Shown in pieces: positions 39,205 to 49,281 of a stretch of 64,000 nt of DNA (position 1 is its first letter; each line of letters opens with the position of its first letter). The notes under the pieces are model-generated. The model searched no databases and had not been told where the DNA came from. It saw only the letters and a list, made by a program, of their open reading frames with translations. Both the position numbers and the translations under genes were made by a program. This DNA comes from an uncultured Clostridia bacterium (lineage in GTDB: Bacteria > Bacillota > Clostridia > TANB77 > CAG-465), in assembly GCA_944386605.1 (NCBI GenBank), contig CALXBS010000001.1:29718-93717 (forward strand). Direction: 5' to 3'.

Positions 39205-40531
39205 TCAACTCCTATATTTTAACTTTAAAAGTTCAGCTCTAGTGGGTTGTAAAGAGGTATAATTTGCAATAATATATTTTTTTGTTGTATTGGTATACAA
39301 AGCTTTTACTGCTTGTTCCAAATCAGGATAGCTTTCTATTTTAGTTTCATCAAATCCAGCAATTTTTATTCGAATGGCAATATCATAGCTTCTTGTCCCA
39401 GCTGTTACAATTCTTTTAACATTATTTAAATTTTCAAAGTTAATATCCCAAATCCAGGATACATCCGTTCCATCTACTTGGTTATCATTTAAAACAAAAA
39501 AGAGTTCCTTTTCTTCTTTGTCTTCATTTAATAATTGTAAGCTCATATTAGCGCCAGTTGGATTTTTTGCTAAATTGATAATAGTAGGGGTATTTTTGAT
39601 GACTAATTTTTCAAATCTACCATTATTTAACTCAAATGTAGATAATGCTTTTTTAATAAAGTTAGTATCTACATGATATAAAGAACAACAAGTAATGGCA
39701 GCAGTAAAATTGTAAATAATATATATACTATTTGACTTTATTTTATACAAAGTATCATCTATTTCAAAGGTTTTTTCATGAAGATTGATATTTCTAGCCT
39801 CTTTATAAATCGCATGATTCCCATAATCACAATTTGGGCATACAAATTTTCCTATATGAGAATATTGATAATATTCATATTCTAAACGTGTTTGACAAAA
39901 AGGACAGAATTTTCCTTCTCCTACTTCTTTCATATAATCTGTTGAAAAAGGATATTTGTCAACATGAAAGTAATATACATTTTGATTATTTGGGTTTGCT
40001 TTTCCTAGTCTTGCAACATTAGGATCATCATTATTTAAAATCAAGTTACCATGATAATTTTTTAAAAACTCATTTATTTTTAAGATTAATAATTCCACTT
40101 CACCAATTCTATCTAACTGATCTCTAAAAAAATCTAATACAATTAATGTATCAAGTGGTAAATCTTTAAATACAATAGGTAAATAACCCTCATCTACCTC
40201 AAAAACTAAATAATCTGCTTTTATTTTTCCGAGTGAATGTGCAAGCTTTTAATAAGGTAGAAAGGATGCCTGTTGCCATATTATTTCCCTCTTGATTACT
40301 AATGACCGTTTTTCCAGCCGTTTGAAAAATATATCGAATAGCATTATTTGTCATTGTCTTTCCATTGGTGCCTGTAATGGCTATAACGGGACAAGTTATT
40401 TTAAAATATTTAAAAATTTGAGGATTCCAGTTAAAAGCAATTTTTCCTAAGAAATTTCCACCGTGTTTTCCGCATAGTTTTAAAGCAATATGAAATAGTT
40501 TCATCGCAAGTACAATAAAAAAGTTTTTCAT
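39205..40531 (-). pseudogene. murT: murT (lipid II isoglutaminyl synthase, Mur-ligase subunit) interrupted by a +1/-1 frameshift
   Basis: N-fragment 40531-40199 (ITGTNGKTMT, QEGNNMATGILSTLLKA) stops at a TGA. The downstream frame, open from 40248, reads KLAHSLGKIKADYLVFEVDEGYLP...FFRDQLDRIGEVE, continuing into ORF 39205-40098 (Zn ribbon CPFC...CPNC, C-terminal DUF1727-like part). The shift must lie within 40202-40248. Confidence 0.8.
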
Positions 40532-40802: not shown

Positions 40803-41348
40803 ATGATAATTAAAATGCAATATACAAGTAAGTATCAATCGTTAATAGGAGAAATATTATTATCAGCAGATGAAATAGGAATAACAGGTTTATGGTTTAC
40901 AGATCAAAAATATTATGCATTGTATCTTGATCAAGAAAATGAAGAAAAAGAAACTTTGTTATTAAAAAAAGCAAAAGAATGGTTAAATATTTATTTTGAG
41001 GGAAAAGAACCTAATTTTAAATTACCACTTCATTTTATAGGAAGCGATTTTCAAAAAGAAGTATGGCAGATTCTTACCACAATTCCTTATGGAAGAGTAA
41101 TAACTTATGGAGAGATAGCAAATATTTTAGCAAAAAGAAAAGGTATATCTCATATGTCAGCACAAGCAGTTGGAGGAGCCGTTGGACATAATCAAATTTC
41201 TATTATTGTGCCTTGCCATAGAGTGGTTGGAAGTAATGGAAGTTTGACTGGATATGCAGGGGGCATAAAAAGAAAAAAATATCTATTAGAACTTGAAAGA
41301 GTGAATATGGATCATTTATTTGTGCCAACGAAAGGAACAGCGATTTAA
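40803..41348 (+). CDS. ogt: methylated-DNA--protein-cysteine methyltransferase
   Basis: N-terminal domain plus the C-terminal IPYGRVITYGEIA...VPCHRVVGSNGSLTGYAGG. Confidence 0.9.
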   Translation: MIIKMQYTSKYQSLIGEILLSADEIGITGLWFTDQKYYALYLDQENEEKETLLLKKAKEWLNIYFEGKEPNFKLPLHFIGSDFQKEVWQILTTIPYGRVITYGEIANILAKRKGISHMSAQAVGGAVGHNQISIIVPCHRVVGSNGSLTGYAGGIKRKKYLLELERVNMDHLFVPTKGTAI

Positions 41349-41656
41349 TGAGCAACATTTTGAATGAAGAGTTAATTTATTTAGTACTTTCAATTGTAGA
41401 GGAGATACCAAAAGGAAAAGTCGCAACTTATGGACAAGTTGCGTGTTTAGCTGGTAGACTGAAAAATTCTCGCTTGGTCGGGAAAATTCTAAGCATGTCA
41501 GAGTTTTATGGTGAATATCCTTGTCATAGAGTCGTTAATTGTAATGGAAGAATAGCTCCCTTTTTTACTGAACAAAGACAATTATTAGAGGATGAAGGAG
41601 TCATATTTAAAAATGAAACATGTGTTGATTTAAAACAATACCAATGGGAAATATAG
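41348..41656 (+). CDS. MGMT-family single-domain protein (DNA-binding/active-site domain only, Cys retained)
   Basis: 102 aa; IPKGKVATYGQVA...YPCHRVVNCNGRI. TAATG start/stop overlap with the upstream ogt. Confidence 0.8.
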   Translation: MSNILNEELIYLVLSIVEEIPKGKVATYGQVACLAGRLKNSRLVGKILSMSEFYGEYPCHRVVNCNGRIAPFFTEQRQLLEDEGVIFKNETCVDLKQYQWEI

Positions 41657-41664
41657 GAGGAAAC

Positions 41665-42198
41665 ATGGTTTATTGTAAGAAATATTTTTCTCCATTGGGA
41701 GAAATAACATTAAATTCAGATGGAGAGTTTTTAACAGCCTTATGTTTTGAAGATGGAAAAGATTATGGTAGATATATAAAAAGCAGCGAAGAGAGAGAGT
41801 TACCTATATTTGAAGAAACGGTAAGATGGTTAGATATATATTTTAGTGGAAAGAATCCGGATTTTATACCTAAATATAAAAGAAATGATATAACACCTTT
41901 TAGACAAGAAGTAATCGATGAAATGATTAAAATTCCGTATGGAACAACAGTAACCTATAACGATATATCTAAGGCAATTGCTCAAAAGAGAGGACTAACT
42001 AAAATGTCGGCACAAGCAGTAGGAGGTGCCGTGGGTTGGAATCCAATTTGTATTATAATACCTTGTCATAGGGTAGTAGGAACAAATGGTAGTTTAACAG
42101 GATATGGCGGTGGAATTATTAATAAGATGAAACTTTTAGAATTAGAAGGGGTAGACATAACAAAATATTATGTTCCAAAGAAAGGAACTGCTTTGTAA
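41665..42198 (+). CDS. ogt: methylated-DNA--protein-cysteine methyltransferase (second full-length copy)
   Basis: IPYGTTVTYNDIS...IPCHRVVGTNGSLTGYGGG. ATG 41665 follows AGGAGG. Confidence 0.9.
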   Translation: MVYCKKYFSPLGEITLNSDGEFLTALCFEDGKDYGRYIKSSEERELPIFEETVRWLDIYFSGKNPDFIPKYKRNDITPFRQEVIDEMIKIPYGTTVTYNDISKAIAQKRGLTKMSAQAVGGAVGWNPICIIIPCHRVVGTNGSLTGYGGGIINKMKLLELEGVDITKYYVPKKGTAL

Positions 42199-42764
42199 TG
42201 GAAATTAGAAGATGTAAATGGGTAAATTTAAAAAATCCAAGATATATAAAATATCATGATAAGGAATGGGGAATTCCACATTATGATGATCACTATATGT
42301 TTGAATTTTTGGTATTAGAATCTTTTCAAGCAGGACTATCTTGGGAATGCGTTTTAAATAAAAGGGAGGCTTTTCAAAAAGCATTTGATTCTTTTGATTA
42401 TCAGAAAATAAGTAGATATGATCAAAAGAAAATAGAAGAGCTTTGTAGCAATCGTGAGATTATAAGGAATAGGTTAAAAATAGAAGCTACCATCAATAAT
42501 GCAAAAATATTTATTAAAATCCAAAAAGAGTTTGGGAGTTTTTCAAATTATATATGGAAGTTTACAGATAATAAAGTTGTAAAAAATATGGATGATCATT
42601 TTAAGACAACCTCTGAATTATCAGATAAAATTTCTAAAGATTTAAAAGAAAGAGGAATGAAATTTGTTGGTTCAACCATTATATACTCTTATCTCCAAGC
42701 GATTGGAATTATTAATGATCATGAGTTAGAATGTGATTTTTATCACCAAAAGAAAAATAAATAA
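42198..42764 (+). CDS. tag: DNA-3-methyladenine glycosylase I
   Basis: RCKWVNLKNPRYIKYHDKEWG.P..DD...FE.L.LE.FQAGLSW. TAATG overlap with the upstream gene. Confidence 0.9.
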   Translation: MEIRRCKWVNLKNPRYIKYHDKEWGIPHYDDHYMFEFLVLESFQAGLSWECVLNKREAFQKAFDSFDYQKISRYDQKKIEELCSNREIIRNRLKIEATINNAKIFIKIQKEFGSFSNYIWKFTDNKVVKNMDDHFKTTSELSDKISKDLKERGMKFVGSTIIYSYLQAIGIINDHELECDFYHQKKNK

Positions 42765-42778
42765 ACAATAGAAATTTT

Positions 42779-42803
42779 AAAGCAGGTAAAACTGCTTTTT
42801 ATT
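42779..42803 (+). terminator. intrinsic terminator of ogt-tag operon
   Basis: AAGCAGgtaaaaCTGCTT followed by TTTATTTT. Confidence 0.7.
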
Positions 42804-42815
42804 TTATAAAGACTA

Positions 42816-42865
42816 TTGACACTGTGTCAGAAATGGTATATACTAATGTTACTGACATAGTGTCA
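42816..42865 (+). promoter_or_regulatory. promoter with two TetR-type palindromic operators
   Basis: TTGACA (42816-42821), 17 nt spacer, TATACT (42839-42844). Operator 1, TGACACtGTGTCA (42817-42829), is a perfect palindrome overlapping the -35. Operator 2, TGACATaGTGTCA (42853-42865), lies just downstream of the -10. Confidence 0.6.
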
Positions 42866-42894
42866 ATTGAATTTGGATTATGAGGAGGGGAAAA

Positions 42895-43506
42895 ATGACA
42901 AAAGAATTAGAAGATAAAAGAAAAGAAGAGATTACAAATGCTTGTTTAAAATTATATGAAACAAGAAATTTTAAAGATATTACGATAAAAGATATTGGGG
43001 AGATTATATCTGTTTCAAGACCTAGTATTTATAATTATTTTCATACAAAGGAAGAAATATTTTTAGAGTTGCTAAAAAAAGAATATATTTTATGGATAGA
43101 AGAATTAGAAGAAATTATACTAAAAAACGAAAAACTGAGTACAGAAGATTTTTCAAAATTAATTGCTAAATCGATTGAAAATCGAGAGAAAATGTTAAAG
43201 CTTTTATCCATGAACATGTATGATATAGAAGAAAAGAGTAGGCTTGAAAAATTGATAGAGTTTAAAGAAATTTTTGCTCAGTCTATGGAGACAATGAAGA
43301 AGTGCTTAGATAAGTTTTTTAAGCAAATGTCAGAAGAAGAAAAAACAGATTTTCTTTATAGTTTCTTTCCTTTTATGTATGGTATCTATCCTTATACGAA
43401 AGCCACGGAAAAACAAAGAGAAGCTATGAGGATAGTAGGTTTTCATTATCATTATATGAGTATTTATGAAATTACTTATAAAGCGTTAAAAAAATTATTA
43501 AAGTAA
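42895..43506 (+). CDS. TetR/AcrR family transcriptional regulator
   Basis: N-terminal HTH FKDITIKDIGEIISVSRPSIYNYFHTKEEIF. ATG 42895 follows GAGGAGGGG. Confidence 0.85.
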   Translation: MTKELEDKRKEEITNACLKLYETRNFKDITIKDIGEIISVSRPSIYNYFHTKEEIFLELLKKEYILWIEELEEIILKNEKLSTEDFSKLIAKSIENREKMLKLLSMNMYDIEEKSRLEKLIEFKEIFAQSMETMKKCLDKFFKQMSEEEKTDFLYSFFPFMYGIYPYTKATEKQREAMRIVGFHYHYMSIYEITYKALKKLLK

Positions 43507-43525
43507 ATCTAGATTGGAGTAAGAG

Positions 43526-44209
43526 ATGAAAAAGAAAATAAGTGTGATGATTAATATTTTGATGACAATCTTTTTTGTTGTCCTTATGGGCTATCATATA
43601 ACGGGTAATCAAATACATGAATATTTAGGTGTGATTACCCTATTACTAGTAACTATACATAATTATCTTAATATAAAATGGTATAAAAATATAGTAAAAG
43701 GGAAATACCATTTTCAAAGAATTCTTTTAACAGCAATTGATCTGTTATTATTAGTAGCAACTATCGGTATCGCAATTAGTAGTGTTATTATTTCGACAGA
43801 TGTATTTCAGTTTTTAAATATTCAAACAACTATGTTTGGAAGAAAACTGCATATGTTTACAACGTCTTGGGCTTTTATACTAATATCAGCACATATAGGA
43901 TTACATTTAAGTAGTTTTATTGGAATGATAAAAGATAAACTAAAAAAAAGTATGTTTGAATATGTATATTATGTTATTTTATTAGCAATTGTTTTGTATG
44001 GAGGATATAGTTTTGTAGCTACTAGATTTTTTGAAAATATGTTTTTATTAAAAGATTTTACTTTTTTTGATTTTAATAAAAATCCAATCATAGTCTATAT
44101 AGAGTATATAGCAATATTATTATTTGTAGCTTTTATACTATATGGAATAACCCATATAGTTAGAAAAATAAAAGGGAGTAGAAAAAAGGAGGAGAAAAAA
44201 TATGAATAA
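43526..44209 (+). CDS. 6-TM membrane protein with intramembrane histidines (DUF4405-like; family call from memory)
   Basis: Six hydrophobic helices. His residues in helices 1, 2 and 4 (GYHITGNQIH, TIHNY, LHMFTT...SAHIGLH). Its stop overlaps the next gene's ATG. Confidence 0.55.
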   Translation: MKKKISVMINILMTIFFVVLMGYHITGNQIHEYLGVITLLLVTIHNYLNIKWYKNIVKGKYHFQRILLTAIDLLLLVATIGIAISSVIISTDVFQFLNIQTTMFGRKLHMFTTSWAFILISAHIGLHLSSFIGMIKDKLKKSMFEYVYYVILLAIVLYGGYSFVATRFFENMFLLKDFTFFDFNKNPIIVYIEYIAILLFVAFILYGITHIVRKIKGSRKKEEKKYE

Positions 44210-44870
44210 AAAGATAATTGTTTTAATTGTTGTTTTATTAGTAATCATAGCAGGAGTAGTAATTGCTTTATTTTTACAAAAAAATAATGAAAATCAAGAA
44301 AATAATGAAAATAATGAAAACAAGATAGTAACAGAAGCAAATAATGAAGTAATTAATAACTCAGAAACAGAAGGAGGGGAGACAGGAATGCAAGATAAAA
44401 AGATATTAATATTATATTTTTCGCAAAGTGGCAATACGCAAACCGTTGCAAATTTTATCCATGAAATTGTAGGAGGAGATTTGGTAAGATTAGAAACAGT
44501 AAAGACATATTCAGATAATTATAATGATTTATTAGATGAAGCACAAGAAGAAAAGAATAGTAATGCAAGACCAGAATTAAAAACCAACTTAGATAACATA
44601 GAGGAATATGATATTATTTTCTTAGGTTACCCAAATTGGTGGGCAGATATGCCAATGCCAGTATATACATTTTTAGAAGAATATGATTTATCTCAAAAAA
44701 CAATAGTACCATTTGTAACAAGTGGTGGAAGTGGATTTTCAAATACAATCAGTAGCATAAGAGAAAAACAGCCAAATGCAATTATTGAAGAAGGTTTATC
44801 AATTTATGGTTCATCTGCTGAAAACTCTAAAAATCAAGTAGAACAATGGATCAATCAATTAGGTTTTTAA
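44202..44870 (+). CDS. membrane-anchored flavodoxin-like protein
   Basis: N-terminal MNKK + hydrophobic helix, N/E-rich linker (NNENQENNENNENK), then a flavodoxin fold: ILILYFSQSGNTQ...IIFLGYPNWWADMP...VPFVTSGGSG. Confidence 0.8.
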   Translation: MNKKIIVLIVVLLVIIAGVVIALFLQKNNENQENNENNENKIVTEANNEVINNSETEGGETGMQDKKILILYFSQSGNTQTVANFIHEIVGGDLVRLETVKTYSDNYNDLLDEAQEEKNSNARPELKTNLDNIEEYDIIFLGYPNWWADMPMPVYTFLEEYDLSQKTIVPFVTSGGSGFSNTISSIREKQPNAIIEEGLSIYGSSAENSKNQVEQWINQLGF

Positions 44871-44885
44871 ATTAAGGAGATGAAT

Positions 44886-46694
44886 ATGAATAAGAAAGTG
44901 TTAGCTTTAATTATTTTTATATTAATTGTTATTATTGTTGGAATTGTTATATATTTTGTGAATCATAAAAAAGCAGAAACTCCAGATATAATAACTGCTA
45001 ATGATGGTTTGATCTTTATACAGGGCGGTACTTTTAAGATGGGAAGTCCAGAAACAGAATTGCAGAGAGGAAATGATGAAATTCAACATAGTGTGACAGT
45101 AGATGACTTTTATATCAGTCAATATGAAGTAACACAAAAAGAATATGAAGAAATTATGGGAGAAAATCCTAGTAATTTTAAAGGAGAAAATCTACCAGTA
45201 GAAAATGTTACATGGTATGATGCAATTTACTTTTGCAATAAGTTAAGTGAAAAAGAAGGTTTAGAACCAGTTTATACAATTGTAGGAGAAGATGTTAATT
45301 GGGATCGTAGTAAAAATGGATATCGATTACCAACAGAAGCAGAATGGGAATATGCTGCAAGAGCTGGGACAACAACACCATTTAATACAGAAAATTCAAT
45401 AGGAGCAGAAGATTCAAACTTTTATGGTCATTATCCTTATGGAATTGAAGAAAATTATTTCTCACAAGAAAATTTAGAAACAAAACCAGGAGAATATAGA
45501 CAAAGAACTGTGGAAGTAGGTAGTTTTCTTCCTAATAAATGGGGACTATATGATATCCATGGAAATGTAAGAGAATGGTGCTTTGATTATTACGGTGAAT
45601 ATGATTTAGAAAATACGAATAATCCTTCGGGGCCAAGTACAGGAACATTACGAGTAAACAGAGGCGGAGGATGGAACGATTATGCCAAACATATGAGAAG
45701 TAGTTATCGTGGTTCACAAATGCTTAGTCAAGGAATGAGTAATACAGGTTTTAGAATTGTAAGAAATGCGGGGGAAAATATGAATCATCAAATTATTAGT
45801 AATAGTAATCAAAATTATGCAAGTACTCATGATGGAAAAATGTTAATTGTATATTTTTCTTGGAGTGGAAATACAAAAAATGCTGCTCAAATTATTCAAG
45901 AAAAAACAGGAGCTGATTTAGTAGAACTTGAATTAGTTACACTATATTCTTCTAATTATAATCAGGTATTAGATGAAGCTCAAAGAGATTTAAATCAAAA
46001 TGCAAGACCGGAATTAAAAACAAAATTCGATAACATAGATGAATATGATACAATTTTCTTAGGATATCCCAATTGGTGGGCAAACATACCAATGCCAATT
46101 GCTACATTCTTAGAATCTTATGATTTTAGTGGAAAAACAATTATACCATTTTGTAGTCATGGTGGAGGGGAATTTGGTCAAAGTATAACAGATATCTCAA
46201 AGTTAGCTCCTCATTCGAATATTGGCGAAGGATTGAGCATTCATTATTCTGGTGGTTCAAGTCTATCAAATGATATTGACTCATGGCTTGAAAAAAATAG
46301 TATCAGCCAAAATCAAACCTCAGAAGTAGAAATATCAAGAATAAAAATAACGATTAATGATAATGAAGAAATTTATGTAAAACTTGATAATAATTCAACA
46401 GCACAGGATTTTGCCTCAATGTTACCTTTAACGTTAGAGGCAGAAGATTATAATAATACAGAAAAAATAGCAACATTACCAAGAGAATTAACAACAGAGA
46501 ATAGTCCAGCAGGATATACACCAAAAACTGGAGATTTTGCTTATTATGCTCCATGGGGAAATTTATCTATCTTTTATCGTGATTTTAGATATTCTGTTTC
46601 TTTAATAAAATTAGGAGAAATTAAAAATGATGGAATTGATAAAATGAAAAATTTAAATGAGAATTTTACCATTAGGATAGAAAGAGCAGAATAA
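44886..46694 (+). CDS. membrane-anchored fusion: FGE-sulfatase-like domain + flavodoxin-like domain + cyclophilin-like domain
   Basis: TM helix. FGE-sulfatase family motifs: GGTFKMGS, YISQYEVTQKEY, YRLPTEAEWEYAARAG, GNVREWCFDYY, RVNRGGGW, TGFRIVRN. Second flavodoxin module: LIVYFSWSGNTK...IFLGYPNWWANIP...CSHGGG. C-terminus KITINDNEE...TGDFAYYAPWGNLSIFYRDF is typical of cyclophilin-like domains. ATG 44886 has better RBS spacing than 44880. Confidence 0.8.
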   Translation: MNKKVLALIIFILIVIIVGIVIYFVNHKKAETPDIITANDGLIFIQGGTFKMGSPETELQRGNDEIQHSVTVDDFYISQYEVTQKEYEEIMGENPSNFKGENLPVENVTWYDAIYFCNKLSEKEGLEPVYTIVGEDVNWDRSKNGYRLPTEAEWEYAARAGTTTPFNTENSIGAEDSNFYGHYPYGIEENYFSQENLETKPGEYRQRTVEVGSFLPNKWGLYDIHGNVREWCFDYYGEYDLENTNNPSGPSTGTLRVNRGGGWNDYAKHMRSSYRGSQMLSQGMSNTGFRIVRNAGENMNHQIISNSNQNYASTHDGKMLIVYFSWSGNTKNAAQIIQEKTGADLVELELVTLYSSNYNQVLDEAQRDLNQNARPELKTKFDNIDEYDTIFLGYPNWWANIPMPIATFLESYDFSGKTIIPFCSHGGGEFGQSITDISKLAPHSNIGEGLSIHYSGGSSLSNDIDSWLEKNSISQNQTSEVEISRIKITINDNEEIYVKLDNNSTAQDFASMLPLTLEAEDYNNTEKIATLPRELTTENSPAGYTPKTGDFAYYAPWGNLSIFYRDFRYSVSLIKLGEIKNDGIDKMKNLNENFTIRIERAE

Positions 46695-46715
46695 ATTGGA
46701 AGGAGAAAACTTATT

Positions 46716-47009
46716 ATGAGTTTAACAATCAATATTTACTATACTGGAAAAGATGGAGCTGCTAAAAAATTTGTAAAAGAAATGTATGAAAGAGGAATTG
46801 TAGATAGAGTAAGAAATGAAAAAGGTAATGAAAAATATGAATACTTTTTTCCATTGGAAGATAGTGAAACGGTATTACTCATCGATCGTTGGGAAAATGA
46901 AGAAGCATTAGATAATCATCATAAAACAGAAATGATGAAAGAAATAGCAGAGCTTAGAAAAAAATATCCTTTAAGTATGAGAGTAGAAAAGTTTATTGAG
47001 GAAAAATAA
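46716..47009 (+). CDS. ABM-domain (antibiotic-biosynthesis-monooxygenase-like) protein
   Basis: 97 aa, ferredoxin-like pattern: LLIDRWENEEALDNHHKTEMMKEI. Confidence 0.6.
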   Translation: MSLTINIYYTGKDGAAKKFVKEMYERGIVDRVRNEKGNEKYEYFFPLEDSETVLLIDRWENEEALDNHHKTEMMKEIAELRKKYPLSMRVEKFIEEK

Positions 47010-47027
47010 AAAAGGAGTGTGTTTAAA

Positions 47028-47372
47028 GTGAAAAAACAAACAGCGGGAAGAAAAGATTTAGGAGATTTTGCACCTAAGTTTGCAGAATTAAATGATGATG
47101 TATTGTTTGGAGAAGTATGGTCAAGAGAGGATAAATTGTCACTTAAAAATAGGTCAATTGTTACAATAACTGCATTAATTAGTAAAGGAATTGTAGATAC
47201 TTCATTAAAATATCATTTAGAAACTGCAAAAAATAACGGTGTAACCAAAACAGAAATGGCAGAGATATTAACTCACTTGGCTTTTTATGCAGGATGGCCA
47301 AATGCATGGGCTGCGTTTAGAATGGCTAAAGAAGTTTATGCTGAAAATACTGAAAAAGAAGAACAGTTTTAG
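47028..47372 (+). CDS. carboxymuconolactone decarboxylase (CMD/AhpD-like) family protein
   Basis: FGEVWSREDKLSLKNRSIVTITAL...GVTKTEMAEILTHLAFYAGWPNAWAAF. GTG 47028 has proper spacing from AAGGAG (47012-47017); the track start 47019 is too close to the RBS. Confidence 0.8.
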   Translation: MKKQTAGRKDLGDFAPKFAELNDDVLFGEVWSREDKLSLKNRSIVTITALISKGIVDTSLKYHLETAKNNGVTKTEMAEILTHLAFYAGWPNAWAAFRMAKEVYAENTEKEEQF

Positions 47373-47466
47373 AAGTATGTTATTTTAGATTATAATGAAA
47401 CTCAAATCCAATACCAGAGCCTTTAACGGTAGTTTTAGAAGTATGTTATTTTAAATTATAATAAAA
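47365..47466 (+). repeat. 36-bp direct repeat with 66-bp period at the 3' end of the CMD gene
   Basis: AGTTTTAGAAGTATGTTATTTTA[G/A]ATTATAAT[G/A]AAA occurs at 47365-47400 (including the stop codon) and at 47431-47466. Confidence 0.8.
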
Positions 47467-47669
47467 TTCCAATAGATTGTTTACATGATGTTAAGCAAAT
47501 ATTATAGACAAGCATATAAGTTAGAAAAAGATATGTAGGAAAAAATCATTAGATAAATTAGTATGTAGCAAAATTCCTTTAAAAGCTAGCTTAGACAATT
47601 ATGAGGTTTACTTATTTACTGGACTTTTTAAAATATATATGATATAATAAATATATCGGGGGTTTTGTT

Positions 47670-48434
47670 ATGGCCAGAGATAATAAAAAAATAATTATAG
47701 TAATTGTATTAATTGTCGTTATTGCAATTATAGGTTTAGTAGCTTTTATCATCAACAATATTATTAATGAACAACAACATGAGTTAGATGAACCAGGACA
47801 AGAGTTAGGATATGATATTCCAGTTGGAAATTTGGATGCAGAAGTAAAAGATTCAATTGCCTTAGGAAGAGATTTACAAAGTGAAATTAGTGCTGTAAAT
47901 GCTACTTATCAAGACGCAAAAGCATGGTTAAAAGTACCAGGCACTACGATTGATACACCTATATTTCAATCAACAGATAATGATCGATATTATAGAAATG
48001 ATAGAGATAATGAAAAGACAAAATGGGGAGAACCATATTTAGATTATAGATGTAGCCTTGCAAGTATTGGAAGACCATCTAATATCATTATATATGGTCA
48101 TAATACAGAAACGGATACACATTTTACGCCATTATTAAATTACAAGAAACAAGAATTTTATAACGAACATCAAATTATTGAGTTAGCTACTCCAGAAGGT
48201 TGTTATAAATTTAAAGTATTTTCTGCTTATGTAACCGATACATCTTTTTTCTATTTAGATACTAATTTTGCAAATACAAATGAATATACAACATTTTTAA
48301 ATAGTATCAAACAAAAGAGTAGATATGATATGGGAGTAAGTGTTGATTCTTCTGATACCATTTTAACTTTATCTACATGTGATTATTCTATTAAAGACGG
48401 AAGATTTGTAGTACATGCAAAACTTGTACAATAA
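47670..48434 (+). CDS. srtB: class B sortase
   Basis: N-terminal TM anchor; WLKVPGTTIDTPIFQSTDNDRYYRND, IIYGHN (His), LSTC (Cys), GRFVVHAKL (Arg). Confidence 0.85.
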   Translation: MARDNKKIIIVIVLIVVIAIIGLVAFIINNIINEQQHELDEPGQELGYDIPVGNLDAEVKDSIALGRDLQSEISAVNATYQDAKAWLKVPGTTIDTPIFQSTDNDRYYRNDRDNEKTKWGEPYLDYRCSLASIGRPSNIIIYGHNTETDTHFTPLLNYKKQEFYNEHQIIELATPEGCYKFKVFSAYVTDTSFFYLDTNFANTNEYTTFLNSIKQKSRYDMGVSVDSSDTILTLSTCDYSIKDGRFVVHAKLVQ

Positions 48435-48437
48435 GAG

Positions 48438-48466
48438 AGTCCAAAGTTTCACTTTGGACTTTTTTC
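48438..48466 (+). terminator. intrinsic terminator of srtB
   Basis: AGTCCAAAGTttcACTTTGGACT followed by TTTTTT. Confidence 0.85.
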
Positions 48467-48515
48467 TACATATTTTGCAATTGCGAAATGATATACTTAA
48501 ATCGAGGTGATACAA

Positions 48516-48821
48516 ATGAAGTATAACTACCAAGATGGTATATTAAGTATTAGTTTGGAAGAAGAGTTAGATGTAAATTCTTGTAAGACTTTAAGAACTG
48601 TAATTGATGGATATATTATGAAATATCAACCAGATGAGTTTTTTCTTAATTTAGAACATGTAAAATTTATGGATAGTAGTGGCATAGGACTCATTTTAGG
48701 AAGATATAATTTATTAAAGCTAATGAATTGTAATATGACCATTTTAAATCCAACGAACAGTATTAAAAGAGTGATTGAGCTTTCTAATATTTCTAACAAA
48801 ATAGCAATGAGGAGTGAATGA
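48516..48821 (+). CDS. spoIIAA: anti-sigma-F antagonist (STAS domain)
   Basis: FMDSSGIGLILGRY phosphorylation motif closely matches SpoIIAA. ATG 48516 follows GAGGTGA. Confidence 0.85.
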   Translation: MKYNYQDGILSISLEEELDVNSCKTLRTVIDGYIMKYQPDEFFLNLEHVKFMDSSGIGLILGRYNLLKLMNCNMTILNPTNSIKRVIELSNISNKIAMRSE

Positions 48822-48822
48822 G

Positions 48823-49281
48823 ATGAAAGAAAATAAAATGAGTATTACAATTAATGCTGTAAGTGAAAATATACCTGTAGTGCGTGTGGCAGTAACTTCT
48901 TTTATTTCTAATTTAGAAATAACATTAGATGAATTAATGGAAATAAAAACCGCAGTTTCTGAAGCTCTTACCAATGCAATAGAACATGGCTATACAAAAT
49001 ATTCTGGAGATAATCCTGTTGTCATATTAAACGCTAAGTTTACTTCTGATGAAGAAGACCATGTTGAAATTGAGGTCATTGATTATGGAGTTGGGATTGA
49101 AGATATTGAGCTTGCAACGACACCTGCATATACATCTAAACCAGAATTAGAACATGCAGGAATGGGATTTACTATTATGGAAAGCTTTATGGATGAGATT
49201 ATTATTGATTCTGAAAAGGATTCTGGAACAAAAATAACTTTGAAGAAAAAATTAAGAAATAAAAAATCAAAAATGAGCTAA
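48823..49281 (+). CDS. spoIIAB: anti-sigma-F factor / serine protein kinase
   Basis: N-box EALTNAIEHGY; G-boxes DYGVGIEDIE...TSKPELEHAGMGFTIMESFMDE. ATG 48823 lies 8 nt after GAGGAG. Confidence 0.85.
   Translation: MKENKMSITINAVSENIPVVRVAVTSFISNLEITLDELMEIKTAVSEALTNAIEHGYTKYSGDNPVVILNAKFTSDEEDHVEIEVIDYGVGIEDIELATTPAYTSKPELEHAGMGFTIMESFMDEIIIDSEKDSGTKITLKKKLRNKKSKMS

Follow-up and report, generated by a model that had tools for sequence, protein, structure and literature searches.

We describe a six-gene operon in a 64-kb stretch of genomic DNA from an uncultured Clostridia bacterium (contig CALXBS010000001.1; the whole stretch is called the window below), which encodes a TetR-family repressor, a six-helix membrane protein of the DUF4405 family, two flavodoxin-bearing proteins with N-terminal membrane anchors, and two small proteins of the ABM and CMD families. 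We propose that the DUF4405 protein is a membrane cytochrome that conducts electrons to flavoproteins tethered at the cell surface, an architecture to which we assign a probability of about 0.7. A further-reaching and more doubtful possibility is that the operon represents an ApbE-independent class of extracytoplasmic redox system, in which a DUF4405 haem b protein would power surface flavodoxins that hold their flavin non-covalently, and in which a domain with the fold of the formylglycine-generating enzyme (FGE) and a cyclophilin-like barrel would form a new type of extracellular reductase for redox-active aromatics derived from diet or host, serving detoxification or respiration.

A candidate haem b conduit and its flavodoxin partners

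The DUF4405 protein has the features published for cytochromes of this family, namely a match to the PF14358 profile, six transmembrane (TM) helices and four central conserved histidines, and hydropathy together with flanking charges predicts that both its termini lie in the cytoplasm. His31, His45, His109, His123 and His127 are invariant among 19 homologues as distant as 26% identity. His31 and His45 lie on TM2 and His109 and His123 on TM4, with a spacing of 14 residues in each case (His-x13-His) and with one member of each pair near the outer face of the membrane and the other near the inner face; His127 is on or next to TM4. Histidines spaced in this way on two helices are typical of the two haem sites in four-helix bundles of the cytochrome b type, and the predicted ligand sets are His31/His109 on the outer side and His45/His123 on the inner side. 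The earlier note had placed histidines in helices 1, 2 and 4; those on TM2 and TM4 are the invariant ones, and His24, the one assigned to helix 1, proved to lie at the TM1/TM2 turn and to be unconserved. All 19 homologues match PF14358, eight of them also match Ni_hydr_CYTB (prokaryotic cytochrome b561) weakly, and just one gives a weak match to Ferric_reduct. The family is large, with 5140 clusters at 50% identity matching at E <= 0.001. A 2015 prediction assigned DUF4405 to the cytochrome b family (PMC5898192), and one member, the Oscillospiraceae protein MBD5117352.1, has since been purified and gave haem b spectra (Huang et al., mSystems 2024, PMC11334425). These reports and the His-x13-His pattern support the haem b membrane conduit suggested by the earlier note, and make the DUF4405 protein of the window a candidate di-haem b cytochrome.

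Several observations support a location of the flavodoxin domains outside the cytoplasm, as the earlier note had also deduced. Hydropathy confirms that each of the two flavodoxin-bearing proteins starts with MNKK, followed by a single hydrophobic helix (residues 5-23) and no second TM segment. The net charge after the anchor helix is negative in both, and in the three-domain protein two lysines follow the helix. Regular expressions found no lipobox in either protein, and export by the Tat route was rejected because both MNKK N-termini lack a twin-arginine motif. Taken together, the charge bias and the absence of both a twin-arginine motif and a lipobox favour a signal anchor with the N-terminus inside and the C-terminus outside. 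Orthologues from Lachnospiraceae and other genomes carry classical lipoprotein signal peptides instead: that of the FGE-like plus Flavodoxin_4 protein in locus L087 starts MKRISAFLMAAVMVFSLAACG and is 65% identical over 432 residues, and a single-domain Flavodoxin_4 lipoprotein in locus L077 is 46% identical to the window protein. Stand-alone homologues of the Cyclophil_like2 domain have an anchor and linker of the same type as the window proteins. We also considered whether the FGE-like domain has a conserved structural disulfide, which would be a further sign of export, and rejected this, since Cys232 is not conserved in the L087 orthologue.

Natural gene fusions bear on the topology of both partners. 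Five single-chain proteins (P0307, P0320, P0332, P0350 and P0372) join DUF4405 through a seventh helix, TM7, to a Flavodoxin_4 domain, always with a flavinylation-type insertion, and a sixth (P0297) has an FMN_bind domain with the canonical DAVSGATYS flavinylation motif in the same position. Since flavinylation of FMN_bind is an extracytosolic modification (PMC8238504; PMC11334425), these fusions put the C-terminus of the DUF4405 core inside and the domain after TM7 outside. Where the flavodoxin gene is separate, the counterpart of TM7 is the anchor helix encoded by that gene, which in the window shares 8 nt with the DUF4405 gene. In P0409 (424 aa), another called protein, a MerR helix-turn-helix and DUF4405 are combined with the beginning of an FGE-sulfatase domain; read-through or faulty gene calling probably produced it, yet it hints at versions of the cluster that are regulated by MerR.

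Flavodoxins without a flavinylation site

Huang and colleagues reached DUF4405 by mining apbE clusters and linked the family to extracytosolic Flavodoxin_4 proteins, in which an insertion between strand 1 and helix 1 bears a flavinylated serine; by their argument, flavodoxins outside the cytosol are flavinylated and those without flavinylation are cytosolic, covalent attachment preventing the loss of flavin and thereby enabling flavoproteins to function beyond the cytoplasm (PMC11334425). The two flavodoxin domains of the window score 110.1 and 96.7 bits against Flavodoxin_4 (PF12682) and are 55% identical to each other. Both keep the S-x-S-G-N-T loop for the phosphate of flavin mononucleotide (FMN) and a GYPNWW motif, and both are predicted to bind FMN. 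In both, however, YFSxSGNT (YFSQSGNT in the 222-residue protein) directly follows strand 1 without the flavinylation insertion, which in relatives is of the DAVTSASV type. The motif [ST][GSA]A[ST] is absent from both flavodoxin-bearing proteins, and hidden Markov models (HMMs) of our own gave no matches to ApbE, NusG_II or Hpre_diP_synt_I in the 64-kb window. Because no ApbE flavinylation site is present, any flavin of the window flavodoxins would be non-covalently bound.

We surveyed the neighbourhood of DUF4405 in 80 loci with the family profile from species-representative (GTDB) genomes and in metagenome loci, giving 84 non-redundant loci in a sample biased towards relatives of the window protein; the window's own species was not among the representatives scanned, where the best match had 77% identity. 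Loci were annotated with HMMs built from Pfam-annotated members, and neighbours were counted within 7 kb of DUF4405. By this count Flavodoxin_4 occurs in 75 loci, CMD in 50, Cyclophil_like2 in 46, AKR in 39, Cupin_2 in 37, FMN_red in 35, Flavin_Reduct in 26, TetR in 24, LysR in 23, the FGE-like domain in 22, ABM in 18 and ApbE in 4, with FMN_red or Flavin_Reduct present in 43 of the 84. The immediate same-strand neighbour is Flavodoxin_4 (43 cases), an FGE-like plus Flavodoxin_4 protein (13), double CMD (11), FMN_red (11) or Flavin_Reduct (8), and an ABM gene closes the operon in 18 of the 84 loci. Gene order varies: the closest relatives, exemplified by locus L010, read AKR-TetR-DUF4405-Flavodoxin_4-[FGE+Flavodoxin_4+Cyclophil_like2]-[CMD+Cupin_2]-FMN_red-Amidohydro_2, and another group, exemplified by L008, reads AKR-TetR-FMN_red-[FGE+Flavodoxin_4]-DUF4405-Flavin_Reduct-Flavodoxin_4-Cyclophil_like2-ABM. 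The two-domain FGE-like plus Flavodoxin_4 protein is abundant and strongly conserved, with 7787 metagenome matches at E <= 1e-10, the best 120 of them about 68-86% identical, and the three-domain form with Cyclophil_like2 is rare (six clusters). The co-occurrence in other genomes that the earlier note had singled out for checking is thus borne out by a neighbourhood conserved in dozens of species.

Sorting the exported flavodoxins by class shows how often apbE is missing. Among the 75 loci with a Flavodoxin_4 neighbour, 35 export flavodoxins of the unflavinylated class only, and none of these has apbE within 7 kb; 13 export both classes (one with apbE) and 11 the flavinylated class only (two with apbE), counts that are approximate, as classes were assigned by our own regular expressions and a number of domains stayed unassigned. 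All FGE-like plus Flavodoxin_4 proteins fall in the unflavinylated class, and the arrangement with unflavinylated flavodoxins only and no apbE is the commonest in this DUF4405 sample, biased as it is to relatives of the window. The hosts are uncultured gut Clostridia, Bacilli/'Tenericutes', Anaeroplasma, Lachnospiraceae, Ruminococcus and Brachyspira, and further Treponema primitia, a Paenibacillus and Clostridioides difficile; the ApbE-independent class may be very common in gut Clostridia, uncultured Bacilli/'Tenericutes', Lachnospiraceae and Brachyspira. The C. difficile locus (L089 7741-10651, chromosome OX244046.1) encodes a lipoprotein Flavodoxin_4 with the flavinylation-type insertion AVSSASVN, FMN_red, a lipoprotein Cyclophil_like2 and DUF4405, and this species could serve as a genetically tractable model for the DUF4405/Flavodoxin_4 system.

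Like the system of Huang et al. 2024, the window locus has a six-TM DUF4405 protein whose four central histidines are conserved and, adjacent to it, a Flavodoxin_4 that is probably exported; it differs in lacking apbE, a flavin-transporter gene and the flavodoxin insertion, and in adding FGE-like and cyclophilin-like modules, ABM, CMD and a TetR repressor. The published type is found in locus L006, with ApbE, NusG_II, Hpre_diP_synt_I, Flavodoxin_4, DUF4405 and Flavodoxin_4, followed by Cyclophil_like2 proteins. The earlier note knew of no characterised system of this composition, a claim that no longer holds for the pairing of DUF4405 with extracytosolic Flavodoxin_4, published in 2024 (PMC11334425). 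Text searches of that paper gave no occurrence of cyclophilin, PF18050 or formylglycine, the 2021 flavinylation survey (PMC8238504) does not mention the window's architecture, and the literature searched contained nothing on an FGE-like or cyclophilin-like architecture with flavodoxin beyond PMC11334425 and PMC5898192. The form that has FGE-like and cyclophilin-like modules but neither ApbE nor flavinylation therefore appears to be undescribed in the literature searched.

Accessory domains, regulation and the proposed mechanism

The FGE-like domain matches the PF03781 fold with E 1.9e-49. Among solved structures the nearest is that of TvpA (2Y3C), a surface protein of Treponema, and further solved relatives are FGE itself, the lipoproteins PorK/GldK and the periplasmic protein PvdO. 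In the alignment with human FGE, however, 'MCHRSYCYRYR' is opposite the shorter, cysteine-free 'W---NDYAKHMR', so that the catalytic, copper-binding pair (human Cys336/Cys341) is absent; for want of these cysteines we rejected a true formylglycine-generating enzyme. Most plausibly, the domain is a non-FGE member of the fold that acts as a binding domain or as a new catalytic domain. No flavodoxin fusion among other FGE-fold proteins came up in the searches made. The Cyclophil_like2 domain stayed unmatched when the whole fusion protein was searched against PDB sequences and is placed by fold search only: its model, with a predicted local distance difference test (pLDDT) score of 92, is matched by Foldseek to TM1367, AF2241 and the Pictet-Spenglerases KslB/McbB (TM-scores of about 0.7-0.8), the last two through their tryptophan-binding barrels.

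The ABM and CMD proteins have no export signal and would thus be cytoplasmic. The best-matching structure for the CMD protein is 4G9Q. For its start, gene callers use GTG 47028, which has better ribosome-binding-site spacing than 47019. The protein had been described as CMD/AhpD-like; membership of the CMD family stands and the likeness to AhpD does not, since its translation has no cysteine and hence no CxxC, for which reason an AhpD-type peroxidase was rejected. PcaC was likewise rejected, as the protein scores 76.8 bits against a cut-off of 155.7 for the equivalog model TIGR02425.

The ORF (open reading frame) coordinates and gaps confirm the six co-directional, packed genes recognized in the earlier note, which lie on the + strand between 42895 and 47372 with intergenic gaps of +19, -8, +15, +21 and +9 nt in operon order. 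A GGAG-type ribosome-binding site precedes all six starts, and the domains that the note had named are all assigned by Pfam above gathering cut-offs. This six-gene locus recurs, between the same flanking genes, on 12 metagenome contigs. Upstream transcription is blocked by an intrinsic terminator, which insulates the operon, and the promoter that follows matches 11 of 12 positions and is the best-scoring site within 42600-47800. The two palindromic operators claimed to cover it are indeed there (Table 1), and the motif has no further copies in the 64-kb window. In the TetR-type loci examined the palindrome TGACAC-N-GTGTCA heads the operon, paired in all except L015 and spaced 33-44 nt apart; it precedes AKR where AKR comes first, and within each locus it is found at the operon head only. 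The recurrence of the same pair at the operon heads of related loci argues that the operators are not a chance match and that the regulation is conserved too. The start of the TetR gene is identical in the gene-caller predictions. Its domains and the palindromes at its own promoter are those of a TetR repressor with predicted operator binding, and as the first gene of the operon it is probably autoregulated. We found no close characterised relative of this TetR; matches in the PDB and NCBIfam are confined to the helix-turn-helix and give no hint of the ligand.

The scheme that we propose, in which haem binding, topology, direction of electron flow, flavin loading and substrate are all predicted for the window proteins, would run as follows. 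Without inducer, a TetR dimer would sit on both palindromes and repress all six genes, its own included, and a small-molecule inducer would release it and allow expression of the operon. The DUF4405 di-haem b cytochrome, with its outer haem at His31/His109 and its inner haem at His45/His123, would then carry electrons from the cytoplasmic to the outer side of the membrane; in many relatives these electrons probably come from a cytoplasmic NAD(P)H-flavin reductase (FMN_red or Flavin_Reduct) encoded next to it. Outside, the electrons would pass to the two Flavodoxin_4 modules, each tethered through a flexible linker to an N-terminal anchor helix that stays uncleaved, and the FGE-like domain, which has a C-type-lectin fold, and the cyclophilin-like barrel would probably bind or transform the substrate. 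The cytoplasmic ABM and CMD proteins would probably handle the same class of compound. The families AKR, FMN_red, Flavin_Reduct, CMD, Cupin_2, ABM and Amidohydro_2 act on quinones, carbonyls and aromatic acids, and since they recur as accessory genes in the relatives, redox-active aromatics such as quinones or phenolics are a tentative suggestion for both substrate and inducer.

The proposed system has parallels with others. In MsrPQ (E. coli YedYZ), the membrane di-haem b protein MsrQ feeds a periplasmic reductase, so that there, too, electrons from a quinol or a cytoplasmic donor reach a redox enzyme outside the cytoplasm through a small haem b membrane protein. In flavin-based extracellular electron transfer (EET) of the Listeria type (Ndh2, EetA/B, PplA, FmnB/ApbE), likewise Gram-positive, surface-tethered flavoproteins are the last protein carriers. 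ABM is the fold of YgiN, and the families that recur here (ABM, FMN_red/Flavodoxin_2-type, CMD, Cupin_2 and AKR) bring to mind the MdaB/YgiN quinone cycle and the 'flavodoxin + CMD + cupin' stress clusters of Bacteroides and Firmicutes; here, in contrast, such cytoplasmic enzymes are accompanied by a candidate transmembrane cytochrome and by flavoproteins that are probably exported. DUF4405 is reported to resemble MsrQ-like proteins structurally, as well as PepSY-like cytochromes and the ferrosome protein FezC (PMC11334425). It nevertheless belongs to another Pfam family than MsrQ and has no molybdoenzyme partner, its acceptors being flavodoxin modules. A Listeria-type EET locus was rejected, as its components are absent from the operon: there is no Ndh2, ApbE or FMN_bind protein among the six genes (Ndh2 was not searched for in the wider window), the EetA/B-like genes correspond to the Hpre_diP_synt_I and NusG_II models left unmatched above, and the membrane step here is a candidate haem protein rather than a quinone-linked route.

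Some points weigh against the architecture or its proposed chemistry. The AlphaFold (AF2) model of the DUF4405 protein, built on the 19 homologues, has six long helices and a pLDDT of 84, but a Foldseek search of the PDB returned nothing significant (best E 0.3, unrelated helical proteins only), so that the cytochrome fold and the haem geometry are predictions. None of the genes in the window is an obvious electron donor. Anchors and lipoboxes were called with our own hydropathy and regular-expression rules, not with a trained predictor. A flavodoxin exported by Sec must take up its FMN outside the cell, a difficulty in view of the published argument about flavin loss. Finally, the substrate class is deduced solely from the families of neighbouring genes.

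A rival reading is an ordinary cytoplasmic electrophile or quinone response operon, with the anchors on the inner face of the membrane and DUF4405 as a docking partner or quinone-linked enzyme. The flavodoxins lack the flavinylation site that PMC11334425 ties to extracytosolic members, two lysines follow the anchor helix of the three-domain protein, and export signals are missing not only from ABM and CMD but also from AKR, FMN_red, Flavin_Reduct and Cupin_2 in the relatives. Such an arrangement, which the earlier note had offered as its alternative, is nevertheless very unlikely given lipoprotein orthologues at 65% and 46% identity, fusions that put Flavodoxin_4 after TM7 in the position taken elsewhere by extracytosolic FMN_bind, net charges flanking both anchors that favour N-in, C-out, and solved relatives of the FGE-like domain that are surface (TvpA), lipoprotein (PorK/GldK) or periplasmic (PvdO) proteins; what survives of it is a cytoplasmic arm formed by ABM and CMD. 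The surface Flavodoxin_4 proteins might instead be flavin-binding or scavenging proteins rather than redox carriers, with DUF4405 loosely associated, since they have no site for covalent attachment and a non-covalent flavin site outside the cell could capture flavin. We regard this as highly improbable: in most loci Flavodoxin_4 is encoded right beside DUF4405, several proteins unite the two in a single polypeptide, cytoplasmic NAD(P)H-flavin reductases co-occur in the 43 loci counted above, and the operon has no flavin importer gene.

A different question is whether the same topology and conduit serve another purpose, such as repair of oxidised envelope proteins in the manner of MsrPQ, or reduction of metals (Fe3+, Cu2+) or of an extracellular flavin shuttle for uptake or respiration, in place of an action on aromatic xenobiotics. 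True FGE binds peptides and copper, the cyclophilin fold is classically peptide-binding, no substrate-specific enzyme can be recognized in the operon, and the likeness of DUF4405 to FezC and to cytochromes of the MsrQ-like and PepSY-like types would fit such a role. The FGE-like domain, however, lacks the copper-binding cysteine pair, an MsrP-type molybdoenzyme and a metal transporter are absent from the operon and from the locus census, and the Cyclophil_like2 fold is nearest to barrels that bind small aromatic molecules. The recurring AKR, CMD, Cupin_2, ABM and Amidohydro_2 genes, together with TetR and LysR regulators of the small-molecule type, better suit organic substrates, and we consider another purpose of this kind unlikely.

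Features of the operon, its surroundings and its significance

Table 1. Predicted features of the operon in the window (nucleotide positions unless residues are given)
Feature	Position	Strand	Details
Intrinsic terminator of upstream tag gene	42779..42808	+	7-bp stem AAAGCAG...CTGCTTT, then T-run
Sigma-70-type promoter	42816..42844	+	-35 TTGACA 42816-42821; 17-nt spacer; -10 TATACT 42839-42844
Operator 1	42817..42829		perfect 13-bp palindrome TGACAC-T-GTGTCA (TGACACTGTGTCA); overlaps -35 element
Operator 2	42853..42865		13-bp palindrome TGACAT-A-GTGTCA (TGACATAGTGTCA); just 3' of -10 element
TetR-family repressor, 203 aa	42895..43506	+	TetR_N helix-turn-helix and TetR_C_34 ligand domain; Pfam E 2.8e-8 and 6.9e-13
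DUF4405 membrane protein, 227 aa	43526..44209	+	six TM helices; PF14358 44.3 bits (cut-off 26.7)
Membrane-tethered Flavodoxin_4 protein, 222 aa	44202..44870	+	anchor helix 5-25; N/E-rich low-complexity linker; domain residues 67-219
Membrane-tethered three-domain protein, 602 aa	44886..46694	+	anchor 5-25; FGE-sulfatase-like, Flavodoxin_4 and Cyclophil_like2 domains
FGE-sulfatase-like domain of 602-aa protein	residues 39-293, nt 45000-45764	+	
Flavodoxin_4 domain of 602-aa protein	residues 318-470, nt 45837-46295	+	
Cyclophil_like2 domain of 602-aa protein	residues 492-599, nt 46359-46682	+	
ABM-fold protein, 97 aa	46716..47009	+	Pfam ABM; no export signal
CMD-family protein, 117 aa (or 114 aa from GTG 47028)	47019..47372	+	PF02627, 78.2 bits; no export signal

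No intrinsic terminator was found 3' of the last operon gene. At that end a 43-nt direct repeat (47365-47407 and 47431-47473; 91% identical, 66 nt apart) starts 8 nt ahead of the CMD stop codon, and each copy holds a promoter-like TTTAGA-17-TATAAT. The base-composition profile around the operon gave no island signal. Directly upstream, 40803-42764 is an alkylation-repair block of three tandem O6-alkylguanine-DNA alkyltransferase-like genes with a PCHRV motif, the middle protein lacking the N-terminal domain, followed by DNA-3-methyladenine glycosylase I. Farther upstream, on the - strand, a MurT-like gene (Mur ligase P-loop and MurT_C; 39205-40531) is split into ORFs of 110 and 297 aa. Over about 40100-40250 its reading frame carries on in a different frame, pointing to a pseudogene, a frameshift or a fault of assembly; the split is also called in another sample (L092). 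Directly downstream (47670-49281) lie the gene of a class B sortase, which has a promoter to itself and near which no sortase substrate was noticed, and then homologues of spoIIAA and spoIIAB, which mark the host as a spore-forming Firmicute.

Electron transfer by flavins outside the cytoplasm is an active topic in the microbiology of the gut and of Gram-positive bacteria. While the core pairing of DUF4405 with Flavodoxin_4 has been known since 2024, what the locus adds is a set of probably exported flavodoxins without a covalent attachment site, a version that is widespread in gut bacteria. Even if the mechanism fails, the locus still stands as a clear case of a conserved stress operon under TetR control. 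If our proposal is correct, it would reveal a second way to equip surface flavoproteins with flavin, give a redox context to FGE-fold and Cyclophil_like2 domains, and define an inducible system, open to experimental test, in gut anaerobes that are common, with quinones or polyphenols from the diet as possible substrates.

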